A stretch of 64,000 nt of DNA from Escherichia phage vB_EcoM_G37-3. The stretch lies in the sequence record MK327941.1; one strand, 5' to 3'. A program made the translations under genes and the position numbers. Shown piece after piece: positions 1,633 to 10,800 of the stretch. The notes under the pieces were generated by a model, which ran no database searches, was not told the origin of the DNA, and worked only from the letters and a program-made list of their open reading frames with translations. Positions within the stretch are counted from its first letter, which is position 1. Every line of letters starts with the position of its first letter.

Positions 1633-2106
1633 CTATTTGTTAAGCCCTTTAAAGCCAAACACTTTCTTTAATGCATGTTCGGTGATGATCTTAAACTCCA
1701 TGTTATGCTTTTGGCATAATTTCACGGCAGCTAACCATTTTTCAGTATTTTTTGTGTATGTCCATACTTCATGCATATATCGTTGCTTTGTCTTCGCGGT
1801 CATTCTTTTTGGCTTTTCCGGTGGCCTTGTCTCTTTAGCTGGTTTAACTTCCCATAAATGCTCCTTGCCATCATCAAACTTAACGTAAAAATCCATAAAG
1901 TATCTGTGTCTTTTCCCGTCTGTTGATGACTCATAAGGAATTACTACGGTCTCAGATCCCCATTTTGAAACTCTAGGATTGCGGTCTAGCCACTGCATGA
2001 TCCATCTTTCCCAGCTTGAACGGTATGTGATCTTACGTATATCCCCTTTATACTTTTCCTTATTCTCAGGAACATACTTGCCCTTATAAGTGTTAGATCC
2101 TCCCAT
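1633..2106 (-). CDS. 4: head completion protein gp4
   Basis: ORF track 157 aa; position between gene 2 and divergent gene 53; T4 gp4 is ~150 aa (from memory). Confidence 0.75.
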   Translation of the reverse strand: MGGSNTYKGKYVPENKEKYKGDIRKITYRSSWERWIMQWLDRNPRVSKWGSETVVIPYESSTDGKRHRYFMDFYVKFDDGKEHLWEVKPAKETRPPEKPKRMTAKTKQRYMHEVWTYTKNTEKWLAAVKLCQKHNMEFKIITEHALKKVFGFKGLNK

Positions 2107-2121
2107 TTTAGCACCCTTTAT

Positions 2122-2129
2122 TATAAATA
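2122..2129 (+). promoter_or_regulatory. T4-type late promoter motif TATAAATA upstream of gene 53
   Basis: Exact TATAAATA about 33 nt upstream of ATG 2162. Confidence 0.5.
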
Positions 2130-2161
2130 CATAATACTATTTATCAATTGAGGGTGCTAAA

Positions 2162-2716
2162 ATGCTCTTTTCTTTCTTCCCTGCCATTGAATACAACGGC
2201 AAGATGATTACTGACATTGTGCGCAATTACCGCGCCTATTTCAACGCAATAATTTCTGATTATAACATACAAACATATTACATTCAAGGTAGTCCACGAC
2301 CGGAACAAGTTGCATATGAAGTATACGGAAACCAACAACTTTATTGGATCTTGCTGATGCTTAATGACGTATACGATCCGTTCCATGACTGGATCACCGA
2401 TCAAGAGACAGCATATGAATCAGCCGAACAGCGATATGCAAATGTAGGAGGAAATCAAGTATTATACCACGTTGATATTGACGGAAACAAGTATTGGAAT
2501 CTTACCGAATATCCGAAAGGATCAAGCAATTGGTATGATAAAGGGGATATTCATCATCGTCATTTGCAGTTTCAAGGTGCACTATCGGCAGTAGACACAC
2601 TGGAAGATGCGATCCTCCGTAATGAGGAACGACGCAAGATCAAGATCATAGATCCTACACAAATTAAACAATTTATTAACGCATTCATTCGAGAAATGGA
2701 AAAGGCTGATGTGTAA
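2162..2716 (+). CDS. 53: baseplate wedge protein gp53
   Basis: ORF track 184 aa; first gene of forward baseplate cluster, directly upstream of gene 5. Confidence 0.7.
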   Translation: MLFSFFPAIEYNGKMITDIVRNYRAYFNAIISDYNIQTYYIQGSPRPEQVAYEVYGNQQLYWILLMLNDVYDPFHDWITDQETAYESAEQRYANVGGNQVLYHVDIDGNKYWNLTEYPKGSSNWYDKGDIHHRHLQFQGALSAVDTLEDAILRNEERRKIKIIDPTQIKQFINAFIREMEKADV

Positions 2717-2727
2717 GGTGATTAATT

Positions 2728-4527
2728 ATGCTAATGTTTAATAACTCCGTTAAATGGTTTACCGGAATTGTAGAAAACAGGGAAGACCCATTAATGCTGG
2801 GTCGTGTTCAGGTTAGGATTCATGGTATACATCCCTCGCTATCCGCACACGGTGACATTCAAGGTCTTCCAACCGAAGATCTATTATGGATTACGCCAGT
2901 ACAAGATATTACAAGCGCGGCGATCTCCGGTATAGGTCAAAGCCCTACTGGTATTGTTGAAGGTTCAATGGTATTTGGTTTGGCTTTAGATGAACGTTAT
3001 TTAAACTGCGTTATTCTTGGTACTATTGCCGGACAATATACAGAGAAACCACTCACTACAGAGGGTTTTTGTGACCCTTCTGGTGCATATCCTCGTTATA
3101 TTGGTAATGATGTTAATATTCTTGCTCGTGGCGGTATTAACCCAGAAACCGGACAAACAACAAAACCTGATAGTGTCTATATTCGAGATGAAAACACTGG
3201 AGTTGCAGTAAATCCAGACGACGAGCCATTAGACCAAATTCCGGTTGATGATAATCCTGATTTTACAATAGAAAAAATGCTGCGGGGCGATGAGGGATAT
3301 CGCGAGAAATGGTATCTTGATTCAGAAGGATATCCGACAATAGGCATCGGGCATTTGATCATTTATAAGAAAACCAGTGATCTTGGTATTATCAATAATG
3401 AACTTTCTAAGCTGGTAGGGCGTGAAGTTACAAACGGAAGACTTACCGCCGAAGAAGTTAGTAAAGTATTTGCCGACGATATAGAAAAGACTCGTCGTGA
3501 TATGCGCAAACATCCACGAATTGCACCTGTCTATAATAAATGTAATGCCTCTCGTCGCATGGCATTAGAAAATATGGCGTTTCAAATGGGTGTTGGTGGA
3601 TTGGGTAAATTTAAGAATAGTCTTGCTGCGATGTTAGCGGAAGAATGGAAACAAGCCTATGATGGATTACGTCAATCGGTATGGGCTAACCAAACTCCAG
3701 GACGCTCCAGCCGTGTTTCTAAAATTATTTTAACTGGTAACTTAGAATCATATGGCGTAATTGCTCCAAAGAAAGAGGAATCAATTTCTGATGATCCGCG
3801 AGAACGTTTGAGAAATGCCCGTATTGCTGCCTATAAGACGCAGAGAGCAGAAGAAGACCCAGAAGCACCGTTTACCCCACAAGACACACGAATCATGTTT
3901 AAAGAGCCTAAGAGTTCGTATTCTGCAAGGTATCCATATAACCATGTGTACGAGTCAGAGAGCGGTCATATTATCGAGATTGATGATACTCCTTCTCATG
4001 AGCGATATCATCGTAAACATCCTTCTGGTACATTTGAAGAAACCAGACCGGACGGAACGAGGGTAGAAAAGATTGAAGGCGATGATTATCTGATCGTTAA
4101 ACAAGGCCGGAAAGTAAACGTCAAGGGTAATTTGCAAGTTGTTGTTGAAGGTGACGCGCAAGTTTATTATATGGGTAATGTGATGCAAACCGTTGATGGT
4201 AACGTCACTGAATTTATTCGTGGCAATGTTAATCAGACCGTTGAAGGTACTGCTAACATGCATGTTGTTGGTGATGTTATCGCACAGCTTGACGCTAATT
4301 TGACGGCTAACGTCAAGGGTAATGCTGAATTAATGATCGAGGGTAACACTACCGAAACAATTAAAGGTAACTATGATTTAACCGTTGAGGGTAATTTTAA
4401 TATGACAGTCAATGGCACTAAATCAGATCAGGTTAATGGTGACTGGTCCCGTAATTGTGGTGCAAGCGTTAAAGATATTGCATCTGGTACAGTTAAAATT
4501 GATGGTAGCCGTATTGATCTTGGGTGA
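2728..4527 (+). CDS. 5: baseplate hub subunit and tail lysozyme gp5
   Basis: 599 aa; central lysozyme domain (EGYREKWYLDSEGYPTIGIGHLI resembles T4 lysozyme catalytic region); C-terminal 8-residue beta-helix repeats (VxGxxxxx: VEGDAQVY, VDGNVTEF, VEGTANMH...). Confidence 0.9.
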   Translation: MLMFNNSVKWFTGIVENREDPLMLGRVQVRIHGIHPSLSAHGDIQGLPTEDLLWITPVQDITSAAISGIGQSPTGIVEGSMVFGLALDERYLNCVILGTIAGQYTEKPLTTEGFCDPSGAYPRYIGNDVNILARGGINPETGQTTKPDSVYIRDENTGVAVNPDDEPLDQIPVDDNPDFTIEKMLRGDEGYREKWYLDSEGYPTIGIGHLIIYKKTSDLGIINNELSKLVGREVTNGRLTAEEVSKVFADDIEKTRRDMRKHPRIAPVYNKCNASRRMALENMAFQMGVGGLGKFKNSLAAMLAEEWKQAYDGLRQSVWANQTPGRSSRVSKIILTGNLESYGVIAPKKEESISDDPRERLRNARIAAYKTQRAEEDPEAPFTPQDTRIMFKEPKSSYSARYPYNHVYESESGHIIEIDDTPSHERYHRKHPSGTFEETRPDGTRVEKIEGDDYLIVKQGRKVNVKGNLQVVVEGDAQVYYMGNVMQTVDGNVTEFIRGNVNQTVEGTANMHVVGDVIAQLDANLTANVKGNAELMIEGNTTETIKGNYDLTVEGNFNMTVNGTKSDQVNGDWSRNCGASVKDIASGTVKIDGSRIDLG

Positions 4528-4535
4528 GGTAACTA

Positions 4536-5105
4536 ATGGTTGAAATTCTTCCGATGAGTTCAAAATTGGAGGATATCAGCGAGCGAGAAATCTTTGAGGT
4601 GGTGTTCTCTTATAAAGCAACGCCACCGGATGCAAATACCACATACACGATTAAAGAGTTTAAGATCAGCGAGTATCGCCCTAATAAGGGCGTTACCGTT
4701 GAAGAAACTAAAATATCTGGTGAGTATCGGGATAGTTTTTCGCTTGGCGCGGATTCTCTTAAATATATAACGAAAGATAGAATTAAAAAATCTGCCGGAA
4801 GTTTTGATGATTTACCAGATCCAACTACCGCAGATCTATATTATTTTAACGCTCCTACACGTCTACAGGAGGTTTATACTTATAAAGTAACCCTAACCTA
4901 TATCCAATCTGTTTCAGAGTCTTCTGGTGGTTCTGGTGAAGGAAATAGTGGTGGTTCCAGTAGCCGAGAGGGTGCTGGTGAAACTAATCCGCCTCCGGTA
5001 GTAACCGAGCACACAATAGAGAAAGTTTATACTCAAACCGTTTTTGGAAATTGGGATGTGTGGAGTAAACAGTTAAGAGATTATGTTAGAAGAAGTGAGG
5101 GATAA
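4536..5105 (+). CDS. hypothetical protein at the T4 5.1 position, Gly/Ser-rich segment
   Basis: ORF track 189 aa, SD before ATG, coupled to gene 5; no recognisable motif. Confidence 0.55.
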   Translation: MVEILPMSSKLEDISEREIFEVVFSYKATPPDANTTYTIKEFKISEYRPNKGVTVEETKISGEYRDSFSLGADSLKYITKDRIKKSAGSFDDLPDPTTADLYYFNAPTRLQEVYTYKVTLTYIQSVSESSGGSGEGNSGGSSSREGAGETNPPPVVTEHTIEKVYTQTVFGNWDVWSKQLRDYVRRSEG

Positions 5106-5106
5106 T

Positions 5107-5646
5107 ATGATTGAAGTAATTCATTACACCAAAGAAGATGAAATTTTATATAATAGACTACATGAACTATTTTATGAAGTTGACGGAAAGGTTTATAGAA
5201 GGTTCTCTCGTGGACGTTCTAAAGCCGGAAGTCTAGTTGGTGGATTGAAGATAAATCCATGTGGATATAGATATTGGAGACTTGCTGTTGATGGTAAAGA
5301 GTTTCAGAGGTCTCATGTTGTTTATCATATGCATCACGGACACACTCCAAAAAAACCACTACAAATAGATCATATTAACACAAACTCCCTTGACGACCGA
5401 GTTAGCAATTTAAGACCAGTAACAGTTACTCAACAAATGTACAACCAAAATAAACAATCCGATTGCACATCTTCATATATTGGTGTTAATTGGAATAAAA
5501 ATTCCAAAAAATGGGAAGCTAGAATTAGAGCTAATGGAAAACGAATCCGTTTAGGTCTATTTGATAATGAAATTGACGCTGCGATTGCCTATAACACCGC
5601 TGCATTATCTAGAGATTCAAAAGTTAACAAATTAAACGATGTATGA
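5107..5646 (+). CDS. HNH homing-endonuclease-like protein with C-terminal AP2 DNA-binding domain
   Basis: HNH motif HHGHTPKKPLQIDHINTN..DDRVSNLRPVT; AP2-like YIGVNWNKNSKKWEARIRANGKRIRLGLFDNEIDAAIAYNTAA; start taken at ATG 5107 (GAGGGA SD) rather than track ATG 5083. Confidence 0.75.
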   Translation: MIEVIHYTKEDEILYNRLHELFYEVDGKVYRRFSRGRSKAGSLVGGLKINPCGYRYWRLAVDGKEFQRSHVVYHMHHGHTPKKPLQIDHINTNSLDDRVSNLRPVTVTQQMYNQNKQSDCTSSYIGVNWNKNSKKWEARIRANGKRIRLGLFDNEIDAAIAYNTAALSRDSKVNKLNDV

Positions 5647-5661
5647 GGATGGGGGTGTTTA

Positions 5662-5955
5662 ATGGCTGGATTATCCTACGATAAAGCTAAAACTACAGGG
5701 CACGGAAACTACCCACCTACTGTAATTAATGCAACTCAATCGAAGGTATTTGTTGAGGGTATCCCTGTATTAGTAGAAGGAGACCCAATTACACCACACA
5801 CAAAAACAACAAAGCCTTATGATACACACGGGGGAACTACGGTCGCCAGTACCCCGAAAGTCTTTGTTACCGGAAAGAAAGCAATTCAAATGGCAGATCG
5901 TATTAGCTGTGGCGATACCGTCGCTATGGCATCACCGAAGGTTTATATCAAATGA
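5662..5955 (+). CDS. 5.4: PAAR-repeat tail-spike tip protein gp5.4
   Basis: 97 aa, same length as T4 gp5.4 (from memory); overlaps gene 6 start (ATGA). Confidence 0.8.
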
Positions 5956-7854
5956 CAAAGCAAAAGATTACACAAATTCCTGATATTTTTAATGCTGCTA
6001 CATTCGATGAAATTAAAAGCGCATTAACAGACTGGATGAGAAACCAGGAAGAATTTAAAGATTTTGATTTTAATGGTGCTGGTATTAACGTATTGATGGA
6101 CTTGCTCGCATATAATACCCTTTATATTCAGCAATTCGCCAACGCCGCGCTATATGAATCTTTTATCAGAACGGCAATTAAGCGTAGTTCAGTTGTTCAA
6201 GCCGCGCAAGATTTAGGATATTTGCCAGCAAGTAAAACTAGTGCATCAACTACAATTATGTTGCATGTATCACATCCACGAAATCCGGCAAGTATTCGAA
6301 TCCCACGAGGAACTAAATTTATTGCAAGTGTGGACCGCCAGACGTCTTATCCGTTTGTTACTACAGAAGACGTTGTGAGCGTTTTAGGTTCAAATGGTTT
6401 ATATACTCCTATGCTTAAAGTCGCACAAGGTCGTATTGTTCGTACAGAAATGTTATTTGATCCGAAGAAACAAATTCTGATCCGCGATCCTGATATTGAC
6501 CGCGCTCAGGTTAAATTGTGGGTGGATGGGGCTGAATGGAAAGACTGGACGCGAGAAAGTATTGTTAATGCAACTGGCGCCAGTAATATTTTCTATATGC
6601 GTGAAACCGTAGACGGTCATACAGAAATCTTCTTTGGTGAAGGTGAATCAACTTTATCTGCTGCTGGCGGTGCACTGGAAGCAAATTATATTGGTGGACT
6701 TAAGCCGTCAACTGGTGCTAATATTGTTATTGAATATATTAGCACTAAAGGCGCGGAAGCAAACGGATCTGTCAATTTCACATACGCGGATACCCTTGCA
6801 TCTATCTCTATTGTTAAAATTATTGAGAATCCGACAAATGATCGTGATTATGTCGGTGCAGATGGTGGTGGTGATCCTGAATCAATCGAACGTATTCGTG
6901 AACTTGCTCCGGTAATGCGTGAATCTCAGCGTCGTTGTGTTACTGCTTCCGACTATGAGGCTTTTGTATCTAGCCGTTTTGGTAGTATTGTTCAGGCGGT
7001 ACAATGTTTCACCGATCGAGAAAAACCAGGTTATGCTTTTGTTGCTGTTAAGCCTAAATCTGGTTTGCGATTGACAACTATTCAAAAAGAAGATATGCGG
7101 GATTATCTGGCAAAATATAACCTTGCCCCTATCACACCGAGCATCATTGACCCTAACTATCTGTATATTAAACAGAATATTAAAGTTTCCTATTCAATCA
7201 ATGACTTATCAGAATCAGAGCAGTGGTTGCGCGGTGCGGTTATTGATCAGATTGATGCATATTATACCGACGAAGTGGAAATTTTTAACCAGACCTTTAG
7301 TAAGTCTAAAATGCTTGCGCGTATTGACAAAGCTGATGTATCTGTGATAGGTTCTAGTGCAGAAATAGAGATGGTTCGAGAGATCGACAACTTCTATAAA
7401 GCACCTATGGCGGGAATCAAGTTTTTAAACCAGTATAAGAGCGGAATCAAGTCTAGTTCGTTCAACTTCGAAAAGGACGGTAAACAATACCCGATCCATT
7501 ATGTAAGTACAGAAATGAACAAAGAATCCGGTTTAGCTAAATTGCTGGTTGGACCTTTCCCTGTTGATTCTACAATCGCTTTACCGCACTTCCGGCACTG
7601 ATTTTGATAAAGAGGTTATTGACGGTGCGGACCTATACTTTGAGGTTGGAGAGGTTCAGCATTATGACGACCTTATTTCATGGGATCTGGGTAAACTGAA
7701 TATCAATAGCGATCGCTTTACTGGTTCATATATTGAGTTGACAGCTAAACCGATTGCTGATAACATCTTTACTAAAGACGGTTCTTTGATCGTGTTTGAA
7801 AACGATCTCCGTCCTCAGTACACAACTATTAGTCTGGAGGCAATTGCTCAATGA
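5952..7854 (+). CDS. 6: baseplate wedge protein gp6, interrupted by an apparent +1 frameshift near 7550-7600
   Basis: Track ORF 5952..7601 (549 aa) continues in +1 frame as 7549..7854 (track start is TTG, i.e. not a real start); combined ~635 aa vs T4 gp6 660 aa; 3' end overlaps gene 7 start. Confidence 0.75.
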
Positions 7855-10800
7855 TTAAAGCGCCTAGTGTAACTAGCTTGACAATAGAAAAATTGTCTGC
7901 TAATCAGGCGTATATCACATGGGATGACGTAGGCGAAAACTTCTTTTATTTTGTGGAGTTAGCCGAAACCAGAACACGAGACGGGGAGATCATCCCCGTC
8001 GATGAGTTAAGCTGGGTAAACCTGGGATATACTGCCGAACAAAACTGGTTTGAGGATAAAAACCTTTTTCCAGAATATTATTACAAGTTTCGTGTAGCAG
8101 TAGCCGCAGAAGGATTTGAACAAAGTAAATGGGTTGAGACAGAAGAGTTTCAGACATTTAAAACAAACGCATATAATTTTTCTATGATGCGAGAGTTCAA
8201 CCTTGCAAACGAGTTTATAAAGGAAAAATTTACATACGATAATCGAGAGTATGTCAAGTTTAATACCGACCTTATTCAAGCATCATTGATGAAGGAAGAT
8301 TTTGTCTTTAGTCCTGAATATGCAAACATGACAAATATCTCAAACTACATTGTAGTTGATGAGAACTTTCATGAAATACAGGACCACATAGAAAAAGTTT
8401 GTACTGATATAAACCACACTATGTTAGCGGAAATGAACGGTGTTTTGTACCTTTTCGAACGGTTCCAGCCGATCGTGAAAGTGTCAAATGATAAAGGCCA
8501 ATCATGGAAGGCATACAAGGCTTTTAATGACCGTGTAGGCAATCCGGTTTCCCGTACATGCGTTTATCAGTCTAAAACCACTACTTACGTTTTAGGATAT
8601 GACCGAATCTTTTACGGACGACAAGCGAGCGATACTCGATGGAGCGCGGACGATGTTCGATTTAGTGATGATACGATCACTTTTGCAAAGGTCGGTGACG
8701 AAAACGATTTAGGCTTTGACGTTGAGGTCTTTGGTGTATTTTCCAGATTAACAGGTGATACCACAAAATACGCCGAAGCTATGGCGTGTAGTGATGACTA
8801 TTTGTGGGTTGGTGCTAAAGATGTTATTCGCCGGATTCGTCTTAAGAATACTCCTGTTGATACCGTACAGGGTTCGCCTACGTTTGGAGAAAAAATATTC
8901 GATCCTGATGTTATCCGAGTAACAGGAAATGATAAAGCTGTCATTCAGAAAATGGATGTGGTCGACGGTAAATTGCTTGTATTTGTTACGGGTGAAGTTA
9001 AACAGCGTTATCAAGATCCAACTAAACCAGAAAACGTTGTTCCGTCAGATGATGCGGGTGTATACTTAATAGGGAGTGATGGTCTGTCTTTTCAGAGAGT
9101 ATTTGGCAACACTCCGCAGGAAAGGGAATATATTCAGCATGGGTTCAGTAATATGTCAACCAATGGTGATGAGGTGTTCATAAGCCATTATAATCATCAC
9201 TTCGAAAGCATTTTACCTGATCCAGAAACTGCCGAGAAATATGAATTGGGAGAAGCTGTAAAATATTCTCATGAGCCAACTTATCTAACTGATAAGAAAA
9301 TACATCAAACTACTTTCAGAGCAAGTTATGATGATTTGCGTATTTGGGAGTTAGGACCGCAAGCGTATTATAATGAGGCCGATTATACATGGATGCGTCG
9401 AAACGGTGTCCGTGTGTGGATCACAAATGATAATCGCCCGTTGGTTGTTTATCCAGAGGTTATCTATACTCAAGAAGTTGATACATCTGGCATTCTTGAC
9501 CAAAATAGGATCAACCGAGAAGTTTATGATAAAGGGACCGTGACCTGTTATCTTAACAATGTTAAATTTGAAGGATTCAAACAATATGCATCCGGTGTAA
9601 TGTTCCATAAAAACACAGGAGAGATCATAGGATTCTATCAATTTAATTATCGTGTTCGTGATCAGGTTGGTGTATATTGGAAACCTACAAATGTAGCATT
9701 TGTTGCTGAATTGCAAAATCAGGTTCGAGAGGTTCCCTGGGTTCCGGTTCACTACGATCGAGAGCAAGATCCAGATTTGCGGCCTTTACTGAATAAGATG
9801 ACCCCTGATAGCTTTTTACTTGAGAACGAAAATTTCAGAAAATTCTCTGAATATTATCTGCAATTCTTAAGCGATGGTTCAGGAACATATTATAATAAAC
9901 TAAAAAATCTGATTAAAAACAAATATCCACGCGAGAAAGATGCATATGAGTATCTTTGGTCAGAGATGAACAAACGAAACATCTATGCAGATAAAAACAA
10001 GCGAGATGCGGTAGTAAGATTCTTTGAATCCCGCAAATCAGATTTTTATTCCACTAAGGGCGTGGAGGCTTCTTATAAGTTCTTGTTTAAGTTACTTTAT
10101 AATGAAGATGTGGAAATTGAGGTTGAATCACAAGCCGGACTAGAGTATGATATTGTTGTTAGTTCAACGAACATTGACGAGGATATCGTAGGTCGCACGA
10201 TTTATACTCCAACCGGACGGGCTAACGTGACGTATCTTGAAAGGGAATATGAAGGTGGTCGCCTACGCTGGCGAGTAACCATTCATAACCTGATCGGGCG
10301 GTTCGAAGAAGGTCAAGTGATCAAATCAGAGAAAACAGCGTTTGAAGGGATGATCCTTGTTGGTGTACGTGGTAAAGAGTTGTTGAGTAGTTCAATCGAC
10401 TATATCAACCGCTCACGAAGCCAATACACCATGAAGATTAAAAGTGCATTGCCAGTTTCGCGCTATGCAAATGATGTAATGCGATTCGTTCATCCTGTCG
10501 GCTTTGGGTTTATCGGTGTTACCCTGCTTACGATGTTCATTAACAGCGGGTTGAGCATGAAGCACACCGAGACGATAATTCAATCTCTGAAAAATTATAA
10601 GTTTGACAGCGGATTGCCTAGCGTGTATCCTGATCGGGTGGCAGACCTTGACGTTGACGGAAACATTAAGAAAGACCCGCTTACCGGAAAAGCATTATAT
10701 TTGACTTCACCTTTAATCGGTGATGAATTTCCGGTTCCTCCTGAATATGATCAGGAGAACAGCGAATTGTTCCACGGACTTAAAGCAAGCGAACGAAGAT

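Follow-up and report, generated by a model that had tools for sequence, protein, structure and literature searches.

A candidate free-standing AP2-HNH homing endonuclease gene at the 5.1/5.4 junction of a Krischvirus baseplate operon

Between genes 5.1 and 5.4 of the baseplate cluster of Escherichia phage vB_EcoM_G37-3 (sequence record MK327941.1; the whole stretch of 64,000 nucleotides that was analysed is called the window below), a gene for a 179-residue protein is found, in which an HNH core is followed by an AP2-type DNA-binding domain; the preferred reading of this HNH-AP2 gene, held at a probability of about 0.72, is that of a free-standing AP2-HNH homing endonuclease gene targeting the conserved 5.1/5.4 junction. 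A free-standing homing endonuclease had been proposed at this locus in an earlier note on the window, and the proposal is supported by the domains of the protein, by the precise presence or absence of the gene among relatives, by its patchy distribution on mosaic genome backbones, by purifying selection and by the repeated occupation of the same junction; the coordinates given there for the open reading frame (ORF) proved exact, and its neighbours in the baseplate cluster are those that had been named. The source phage belongs to Krischvirus (RB49-like, T4-type coliphages); a comparison of positions 4000-7000 gives an identity of 99.7% with vB_EcoM_G5211, and with 57 other records the value is 96.8-98.3%. 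AP2-HNH homing endonuclease genes have already been reported in RB49 and RB43 (PMC1524935, where the definition of the class is credited to Magnani, Sjolander and Hake 2004), and the gene described here is an uncharacterised member of that known class.

Both the HNH and the AP2 domain are confirmed by matches of sequence, profile and fold. In Pfam, HNH_3 (PF13392; cut-off 24.8 bits) is matched over residues 70-111 at 39.0 bits (E=6.4e-10); AP2 (PF00847; cut-off 33.3 bits), over residues 123-168, reaches 32.7 bits and falls 0.6 bit short (E=9.1e-8). The two-domain architecture proposed earlier is supported, AP2 being backed by phmmer, by a family profile and by the fold. Indeed, a search with the single sequence (phmmer) matches the AP2 domain of WRI1 (7wq5) with E=3.9e-6, and AP2 is listed among the precomputed Pfam matches of a 98%-identical protein (P0001); the family profile, built from 14 sequences, matches WRI1 (E=1.2e-17), TEM1 (2.8e-8) and AtERF1 (1e-5) as well as the phage endonuclease I-HmuI (E=3e-9, aligned over I-HmuI residues 24-121), and PHROG 99, 'HNH endonuclease', is matched with E=2.4e-46. 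The AlphaFold model of the protein (predicted local distance difference test score, pLDDT, 85.7) has I-HmuI (1u3e) as its top Foldseek match in the PDB (E=3.2e-4, probability 1.00), followed by plant AP2 domains; the AP2 half of the model lies on TEM1 at 1.6 Å over 59 columns and reaches a template modelling (TM) score of 0.77 with AtERF1, and the AP2 signature residues YxGV, WxAxI, LGxF and AAxAY are common to the protein and to the plant domains. By analogy, the AP2 domain would supply the sequence-specific recognition of DNA; a preference of AP2 domains for GC-rich DNA is reported second-hand in PMC10448857, and the pairing of HNH_3/I-HmuI cores with AP2 is a feature of His-Me finger group 2 (PMC5714182).

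When the interval from gene 5 to gene 5.4 is compared among relatives, most of them are found to be empty, and the gene is thus far from being universally present with conserved synteny. A 3-kb query retrieves six records at 100% coverage (G5211, MIZ4, MIZ5, two records of KFS-EC, and Ec_Makalu_003) and a further 51 at 81% coverage; the listed 81% records span 2441 bp, against 3001 bp in the carriers, which leaves a gap of 560 bp, with the exceptions of Whisky and JEP8, where other inserts are present. By tblastn against INPHARED, the protein occurs at an identity of at least 98.3% only in those six records, which represent five phages, and always at the 5.1/5.4 site, the next best match being at most 42% identical; three metagenomic contigs carry the gene in the same 5.1/5.4 context. 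The site was also surveyed in 56 Krischvirus records with a 106-nt probe that spans the empty RB49 junction: the empty site is present in 44 of them, as the ancestral allele in 35 and as a variant with seven substitutions 14-23 bp upstream in nine; one record (phiS) shows another state of the site, four carry the HNH-AP2 gene, the probe matching on the right side only, and in seven (JEP8, G2494, two of GEC-3S, Skers, W115 and Whisky) the match stops at the junction and another insert follows. The two KFS-EC records carry the gene yet are absent from the probe search, their right flank being different. The gene is absent from about 80% of close relatives, and, since 5.1 abuts 5.4 in nine of the ten T4-like loci returned from IMG/VR, the empty state appears to be the norm.

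In the empty allele (…GATTATGT ACATA GGGGTGTTTAATGGCTGG…; the ancestral empty junction has in RB49 the form GGGCGCAGCAAC) the stop of 5.1 overlaps the start of 5.4 (TAATG); this allele is identical in all ten non-carriers sampled, and the occupied junction is identical across the carriers. The insert (Table 1) rewrites the C-terminus of gp5.1, which ends in DYVRRSEG here and in DYVHRGV in empty-site genomes, and its right edge re-creates the start ATG of 5.4 together with the G-run of the ribosome-binding site. The description of the locus as an intergenic site therefore does not hold, as genomes with an empty site have no spacer between the overlapping 5.1 and 5.4, and the last codons of 5.1 are rewritten by the insertion. 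Of the two forms of a substitution cluster lying a short way upstream (Table 1), the one present in the window, AGTAAACAGT, is found in all five carriers, in nine empty-site records, kvi and ECD7 among them, and in Whisky; a strict tie of this variant to the gene was rejected on account of those nine records. Since the GC-rich form of the cluster also occurs in a more distant relative (L021, 84% identical in gp5.1), it is probably the ancestral one, and the AT-rich form would be derived. Between 5040 and the gene the carriers do not differ from one another, and further left Makalu_003 has many private single-nucleotide polymorphisms (SNPs); this identity and the shared variant at the cluster would fit a short tract of co-conversion.

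The carriers span different species of the International Committee on Taxonomy of Viruses (kfsec, gec3s and unclassified), and the species gec3s alone holds three states of the site, with the HNH-AP2 gene in Makalu_003, another HNH gene in JEP8 and an empty junction in E26. When four segments of the flanks are compared, a carrier usually has a non-carrier as its nearest neighbour (for example, MIZ6 for the left flank of the window, E26 for the right flank of MIZ4, G2248 and JSE for KFS-EC), and the carriers form no clade in the flanking DNA. With a GC content of 34.3%, the gene lies below its neighbours, which have 40.1-43.5%. No copy of the ORF is disrupted in the five carriers; its 10 synonymous and 4 non-synonymous variable sites (ratio of non-synonymous to synonymous polymorphism, pN/pS, 0.107; binomial p=7e-5) show that it is under purifying selection. 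Between the window and G5211 there are 21 SNPs, all upstream of 4780 (2557-4779), and none from 4780 to a deletion in gp6 at 7589 (see below); the break at 4780, about 330 bp before the endonuclease gene, would mark a recombination boundary.

The locus had further been called a recombination hotspot, and this is borne out by its independent occupants, namely the HNH-AP2 gene, a 246-residue HNH gene, a gene between 5.4 and 6 in Whisky and segC in T4. The 246-residue gene, with an HNH_3 core and degenerate AP2-like repeats, occurs in Whisky, JEP8, GEC-3S, G2494, Skers and W115; like the HNH-AP2 gene it is variably present at this junction, whereas it is only 29% identical, has the canonical Asn at the metal-binding position of the HNH motif, and is preceded by a GC hairpin of its own (GGCGGGTGTCGATGCCCCGCC) and by a late-promoter-like ATAAATA. 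Beside it, the start of 5.4 is recoded, 14 of the first 21 codons being changed, 12 of them silently, which looks like an imported or immunity tract. KFS-EC (L006, about 3140-3230) is apparently a recombinant of the two occupied states, because in it the window-type gene is joined to the recoded start of 5.4, the crossover lying in the G run. The gene between 5.4 and 6 (3708-4262 in Whisky, and only there) is a third one of HNH_3 and AP2 composition, 184 residues long, 41% identical and with the canonical Asn, while the 5.1/5.3-5.4 interval of T4 holds the GIY-YIG gene segC, which is listed as experimentally mobile and described as a promoterless cassette (PMC2988022). Because the 246-residue HNH gene and segC are separate invaders of this one junction, insertion appears to be targeted rather than random.

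Two further observations concern the same region in other phages. In T4 (4697-5292), the gene that directly follows segC encodes gp5.3, a protein of 56 residues with a match to the DNA-binding domain of I-TevI (PF20987, E=3.7e-6); segC itself is composed of GIY-YIG and NUMOD3, and the two together have the appearance of a single endonuclease gene that has been split. In a Tequatrovirus-like contig from IMG/VR (L023), an ORF of 288 residues lies between gene 5 and 5.1 (1606-2472); its N-terminus (YIYKTT...VYIGKH) is GIY-YIG-like by eye, with no supporting Pfam match.

Several points weigh against a homing endonuclease. The gene is found in only about 10% of the sampled Krischvirus phages; no donor lineage can be named, because no copy above 45% identity was found outside the 5.1/5.4 site in INPHARED, in an index of 5.8 billion proteins and in a library of 1.84 billion representatives; the gene is barely less diverged than its flanks (pairwise identity among carriers of 98.3-100% for the gene, 96.9-99.3% for the left and 95.0-100% for the right flank), and a recent sweep is not evident; the phages are highly mosaic, so that ordinary recombination could give a patchy distribution without any nuclease activity; finally, a Gln (Gln110) stands for the metal-binding Asn of the HNH motif, and catalysis may be weakened or lost. 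The gene might also be seen as passive cargo, which entered once by illegitimate recombination and was then shuffled by homologous recombination and occasionally lost, without homing. The strongly mosaic flanks, with all SNPs against G5211 confined to the DNA before 4780, the shift of the carriers' nearest neighbours between segments and the small share of carriers would suit this explanation, whereas against it stand the independent arrival at the junction of an unrelated HNH gene and, in T4, of the mobile segC, the complete architecture of a site-specific nuclease, and the ORF itself, every copy of which is intact and under purifying selection; it is considered quite improbable.

As to the catalytic site, the HNH motif had been described as canonical, and this is true of two of its three parts. 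In the family profile alignment, D88-H89 (5368-5373) are aligned to D74-H75 of I-HmuI, the general-base His with the Asp before it, and N101 to the structural Asn, N87; D88, H89 and N101 are invariant in the family alignment, and N113 is retained too. The third motif residue departs from the rule, since Gln110 (5434-5436, codon CAA) falls in the column of I-HmuI N96, the metal-binding Asn/His position; the conserved catalytic residues of I-HmuI are D74, H75 and N96 (PMC12724721). Among 131 HNH motifs counted from 161 homologues this position is Asn in 128, Gln in two and Ala in one; Gln110 is present in all five carrier phages, and CAA is two nucleotide changes away from any Asn codon. Because the metal-binding Asn is replaced, nuclease activity is unproven; judging from the residue itself, which keeps an amide group, such activity seems possible yet cannot be assumed.

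It is here that a degenerate or domesticated endonuclease has to be considered, in which Gln110 would have abolished or strongly cut cleavage and the protein, with its I-HmuI-like N-terminal region and its AP2 domain, would be kept as a sequence-specific DNA-binding protein, possibly guarding the 5.1/5.4 junction from a rival HNH gene or modulating late transcription. Such a fate would agree with the presence of Gln110 in every carrier, two nucleotide changes from Asn, at a position which is Asn in 98% of the homologous motifs, with a pN/pS value that is unexpected for a selfish gene that does not home unless it has another function, and with the precedent of AP2 domains which, derived from such endonucleases, became plant transcription factors (as related in PMC1524935 and PMC10448857, citing Magnani 2004). 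On the other hand, Gln keeps the metal-binding amide and is found in two other family members, D88, H89, N101 and N113 are all retained, the gene is distributed as expected of a recently mobile element, and a gene that is actively homing should show purifying selection just as well; domestication is thus held to be unlikely, if still to be reckoned with. A bolder idea is something of a long shot: the lineage-wide change from Asn to Gln would have left a site-specific DNA-binding protein which no longer cuts, or cuts differently, and which is selected for another role such as shielding the junction from the competing HNH gene or tuning late baseplate expression.

Among known systems, the closest fold match, I-HmuI, is a strand-specific nickase whose C-terminal DNA-binding part consists of helical and helix-turn-helix modules, with no AP2 domain. 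This HNH nicking enzyme of phage SPO1 (PDB 1U3E) belongs to the same His-Me finger group 2 as the HNH-AP2 protein (PMC5714182); it differs in being intron-encoded, in having Asn96 in place of Gln110 and in its sequence, which is 19% identical. RB49 ORF040c and RB43 ORF027c have HNH_3 at the N-terminus and AP2 at the C-terminus, as the HNH-AP2 gene does, and are free-standing, variably present genes of T4-related phages; the HNH-AP2 gene is distinguished from them by its site, which is 5.1/5.4 and not near dam, gene 59 or elsewhere. The AP2-HNH paralogues of Krischvirus share the genus with the HNH-AP2 protein and are 39-42% identical to it; the protein is at most 45% identical to any other AP2-HNH member, from which it also differs in the Gln at the metal-binding position, and by tblastn against all 64 kb of the window no paralogue other than itself was found. 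ICP1 phages are among the many others in which the AP2-HNH architecture has since been noted (PMC10448857); the 'IPA-HNH' genes of ICP1 show the same combination of HNH and AP2 (PMC10448857), although their HNH cores are too divergent for Pfam HNH_3, which the HNH-AP2 protein passes. The plant AP2/ERF proteins (AtERF1, 1GCC; TEM1, 7ET4; WRI1, 7WQ5) have the same AP2 fold, but are transcription factors without a nuclease. T4 SegC resembles the HNH-AP2 gene in position and expression, being a promoterless gene of the same interval, riding the upstream operon and abutting or overlapping 5.1; it is of an unrelated fold (GIY-YIG and NUMOD3) with no sequence homology, and overlaps 5.1 by 20 bp, whereas the HNH-AP2 gene begins 1 nt past the 5.1 stop.

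HNH proteins act in other phages as packaging aides and as toxins (PMC12724721), and a housekeeping or defence role unrelated to homing, in terminase-associated packaging or as a nuclease excluding competitors, was also considered and rejected on the grounds of location, dispensability and family: the gene lies in the baseplate operon and not beside the terminase, it is missing from some four fifths of close relatives and hence cannot be essential, and its core is of the HNH_3/I-HmuI homing group rather than the terminase-associated HNH group; moreover, the exclusion of competitor markers is the homing mechanism itself. This possibility is hardly credible.

The HNH-AP2 gene is an ORF of its own, with a separate Shine-Dalgarno sequence and ATG, outside any intron or intein, and gp5.1 and gp5.4 are both complete. 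The start at 5107 is preferred because of the Shine-Dalgarno sequence GAGGGA, of the GenBank annotation of G5211 and of homologues starting in register, full-length ones beginning with MIEVIHYT (e.g., P0072, MYEVIHYTEEDR); an upstream in-frame ATG at 5083, where the program-made ORF begins, is less likely. The peptide quoted in the earlier note, YIGVNWNKNSKKWEARIRANGKRIRLGLFDNEIDAAIAYNTAA, corresponds to residues 123-165. In G5211, the identical gene bears the GenBank label 'putative HNH endonuclease', and the protein is thus already deposited.

The gene order is gene 53, gp5, gp5.1, the HNH-AP2 ORF, gp5.4, gp6 and gp7. The nearest exact match to a T4-type late promoter box (TATAAATA) upstream of the gene precedes gene 53 (Table 1), and an exact-match scan of the + strand found no other between 2130 and 13492; judging from this arrangement, the box at 2122 would drive the whole unit from 53 to 7, the HNH-AP2 gene included. 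Scans for sigma-70 promoters and for terminators over 2000-8200 gave results at chance level, and on the + strand neither kind of site was found within the insert or near it. Since it has no late box, sigma-70-like or terminator-like site of its own, the gene is seen as a cassette without a promoter, lying in the late baseplate operon; a promoter or terminator of its own was rejected, the scans being at chance level and no late box being nearer than 2122. The layout of the start region suggests translational coupling of the gene to gp5.1.

On the preferred reading, that of a homing endonuclease gene, the following course of events may be proposed. Transcription of the gene would occur late, as part of the baseplate operon, and its translation would be coupled to that of gp5.1; the product would be a protein which, from what is known of the family, would act as a monomer, composed of an I-HmuI-like N-terminal DNA-contact region, a beta-beta-alpha-metal core and the C-terminal AP2 domain. 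During a mixed infection with a relative lacking the gene, the protein would nick or cut the conserved empty 5.1/5.4 junction, nicking rather than double-strand cutting being possible by analogy with I-HmuI; recombinational repair from the carrier genome would then copy the gene and a short flanking stretch into the break, and super-Mendelian inheritance of the gene would follow. The carrier copy would be protected by the insertion, which splits the junction, and possibly also by the nearby AT-rich substitution cluster of 10 bp.

Table 1. Coordinates of the HNH-AP2 gene, its predicted parts, its insertion site and neighbouring features (window positions unless another locus is named).
Feature	Coordinates	Strand	Description
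HNH-AP2 gene, free-standing, putative endonuclease of 179 aa	5107..5646	+	TGA stop 5644-5646; ORF list and sequence
N-terminal helix and beta-strand region, residues ~9-83	5131..5355	+	Model: helix 9-21, strands 22-67, helix 68-77; aligns with the DNA-contacting N-terminal part of I-HmuI
Beta-beta-alpha-metal (HNH/His-Me finger) core, residues 84-115	5356..5451	+	Strands 85-89 and 102-106, helix 107-114
AP2/ERF-type DNA-binding domain, residues 122-170	5470..5616	+	Strands 127-130, 135-142 and 145-152, helix 155-170
Inserted segment, ~565 bp	5087..5651	+	Replaces 5 nt (ACATA) of the empty allele, net +560 bp; junction alignment of 17 genomes; right edge uncertain by ~3 nt
Substitution cluster, 7 changes in 10 bp	5064..5073	+	AGTAAACAGT here, probably ancestral form GCGCAGCAAC; gp5.1 AQQ to SKQ
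Translation start region	5097..5109	+	Shine-Dalgarno GAGGGA 5097-5102, 5.1 stop TAA 5103-5105, one spacer base, ATG 5107-5109
T4-type late promoter box upstream of gene 53	2122..2129	+	TATAAATA; nearest upstream exact match
gp5 (hub and lysozyme)	2728-4527		Gp5_OB, lysozyme, Gp5_C
gp5.1 homologue, 189 aa	4536..5105	+	PHROG 1168, E=1.6e-53
gp5.4, PAAR spike-tip protein, 97 aa, intact	5662..5955	+	Pfam PAAR_motif, E=3.1e-11
246-aa HNH gene	2604-3410 in the Whisky (L003) and JEP8 (L004) loci		Inserted after ATGGC of 5.4, 22 bp downstream; about window 5666

A separate observation concerns gp6 (5952-7856), in which a deletion of 2 bp at 7589/7590 (CACTATTCC becoming CACTTCC) splits this essential baseplate gene into two ORFs, 5952-7601 and 7549-7854. 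The missing TA is present in all 16 Krischvirus genomes compared, including the otherwise identical G5211, and the deletion probably stems from an error in sequencing or assembly, or else from a defective clone.

The points that emerge are modest ones: at least three unrelated endonuclease genes (the HNH-AP2 gene, the 246-residue HNH gene and T4 segC) have been found at one junction, and the ORF of this lineage is under purifying selection in spite of Gln110 at the metal-binding position; neither the multiple colonisation of the junction nor Gln110 alters current understanding. Were the protein indeed a non-cutting DNA-binding protein, it would represent a live intermediate in the path proposed for AP2 domains from nuclease to transcription factor. 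In practical terms, the gene marks a variable and dispensable cassette within the baseplate operon of phages which are under development for therapy, and also a boundary of genetic exchange; for the biology of these phages, it adds one more case of homing endonuclease genes clustering at the conserved junctions of essential phage genes.

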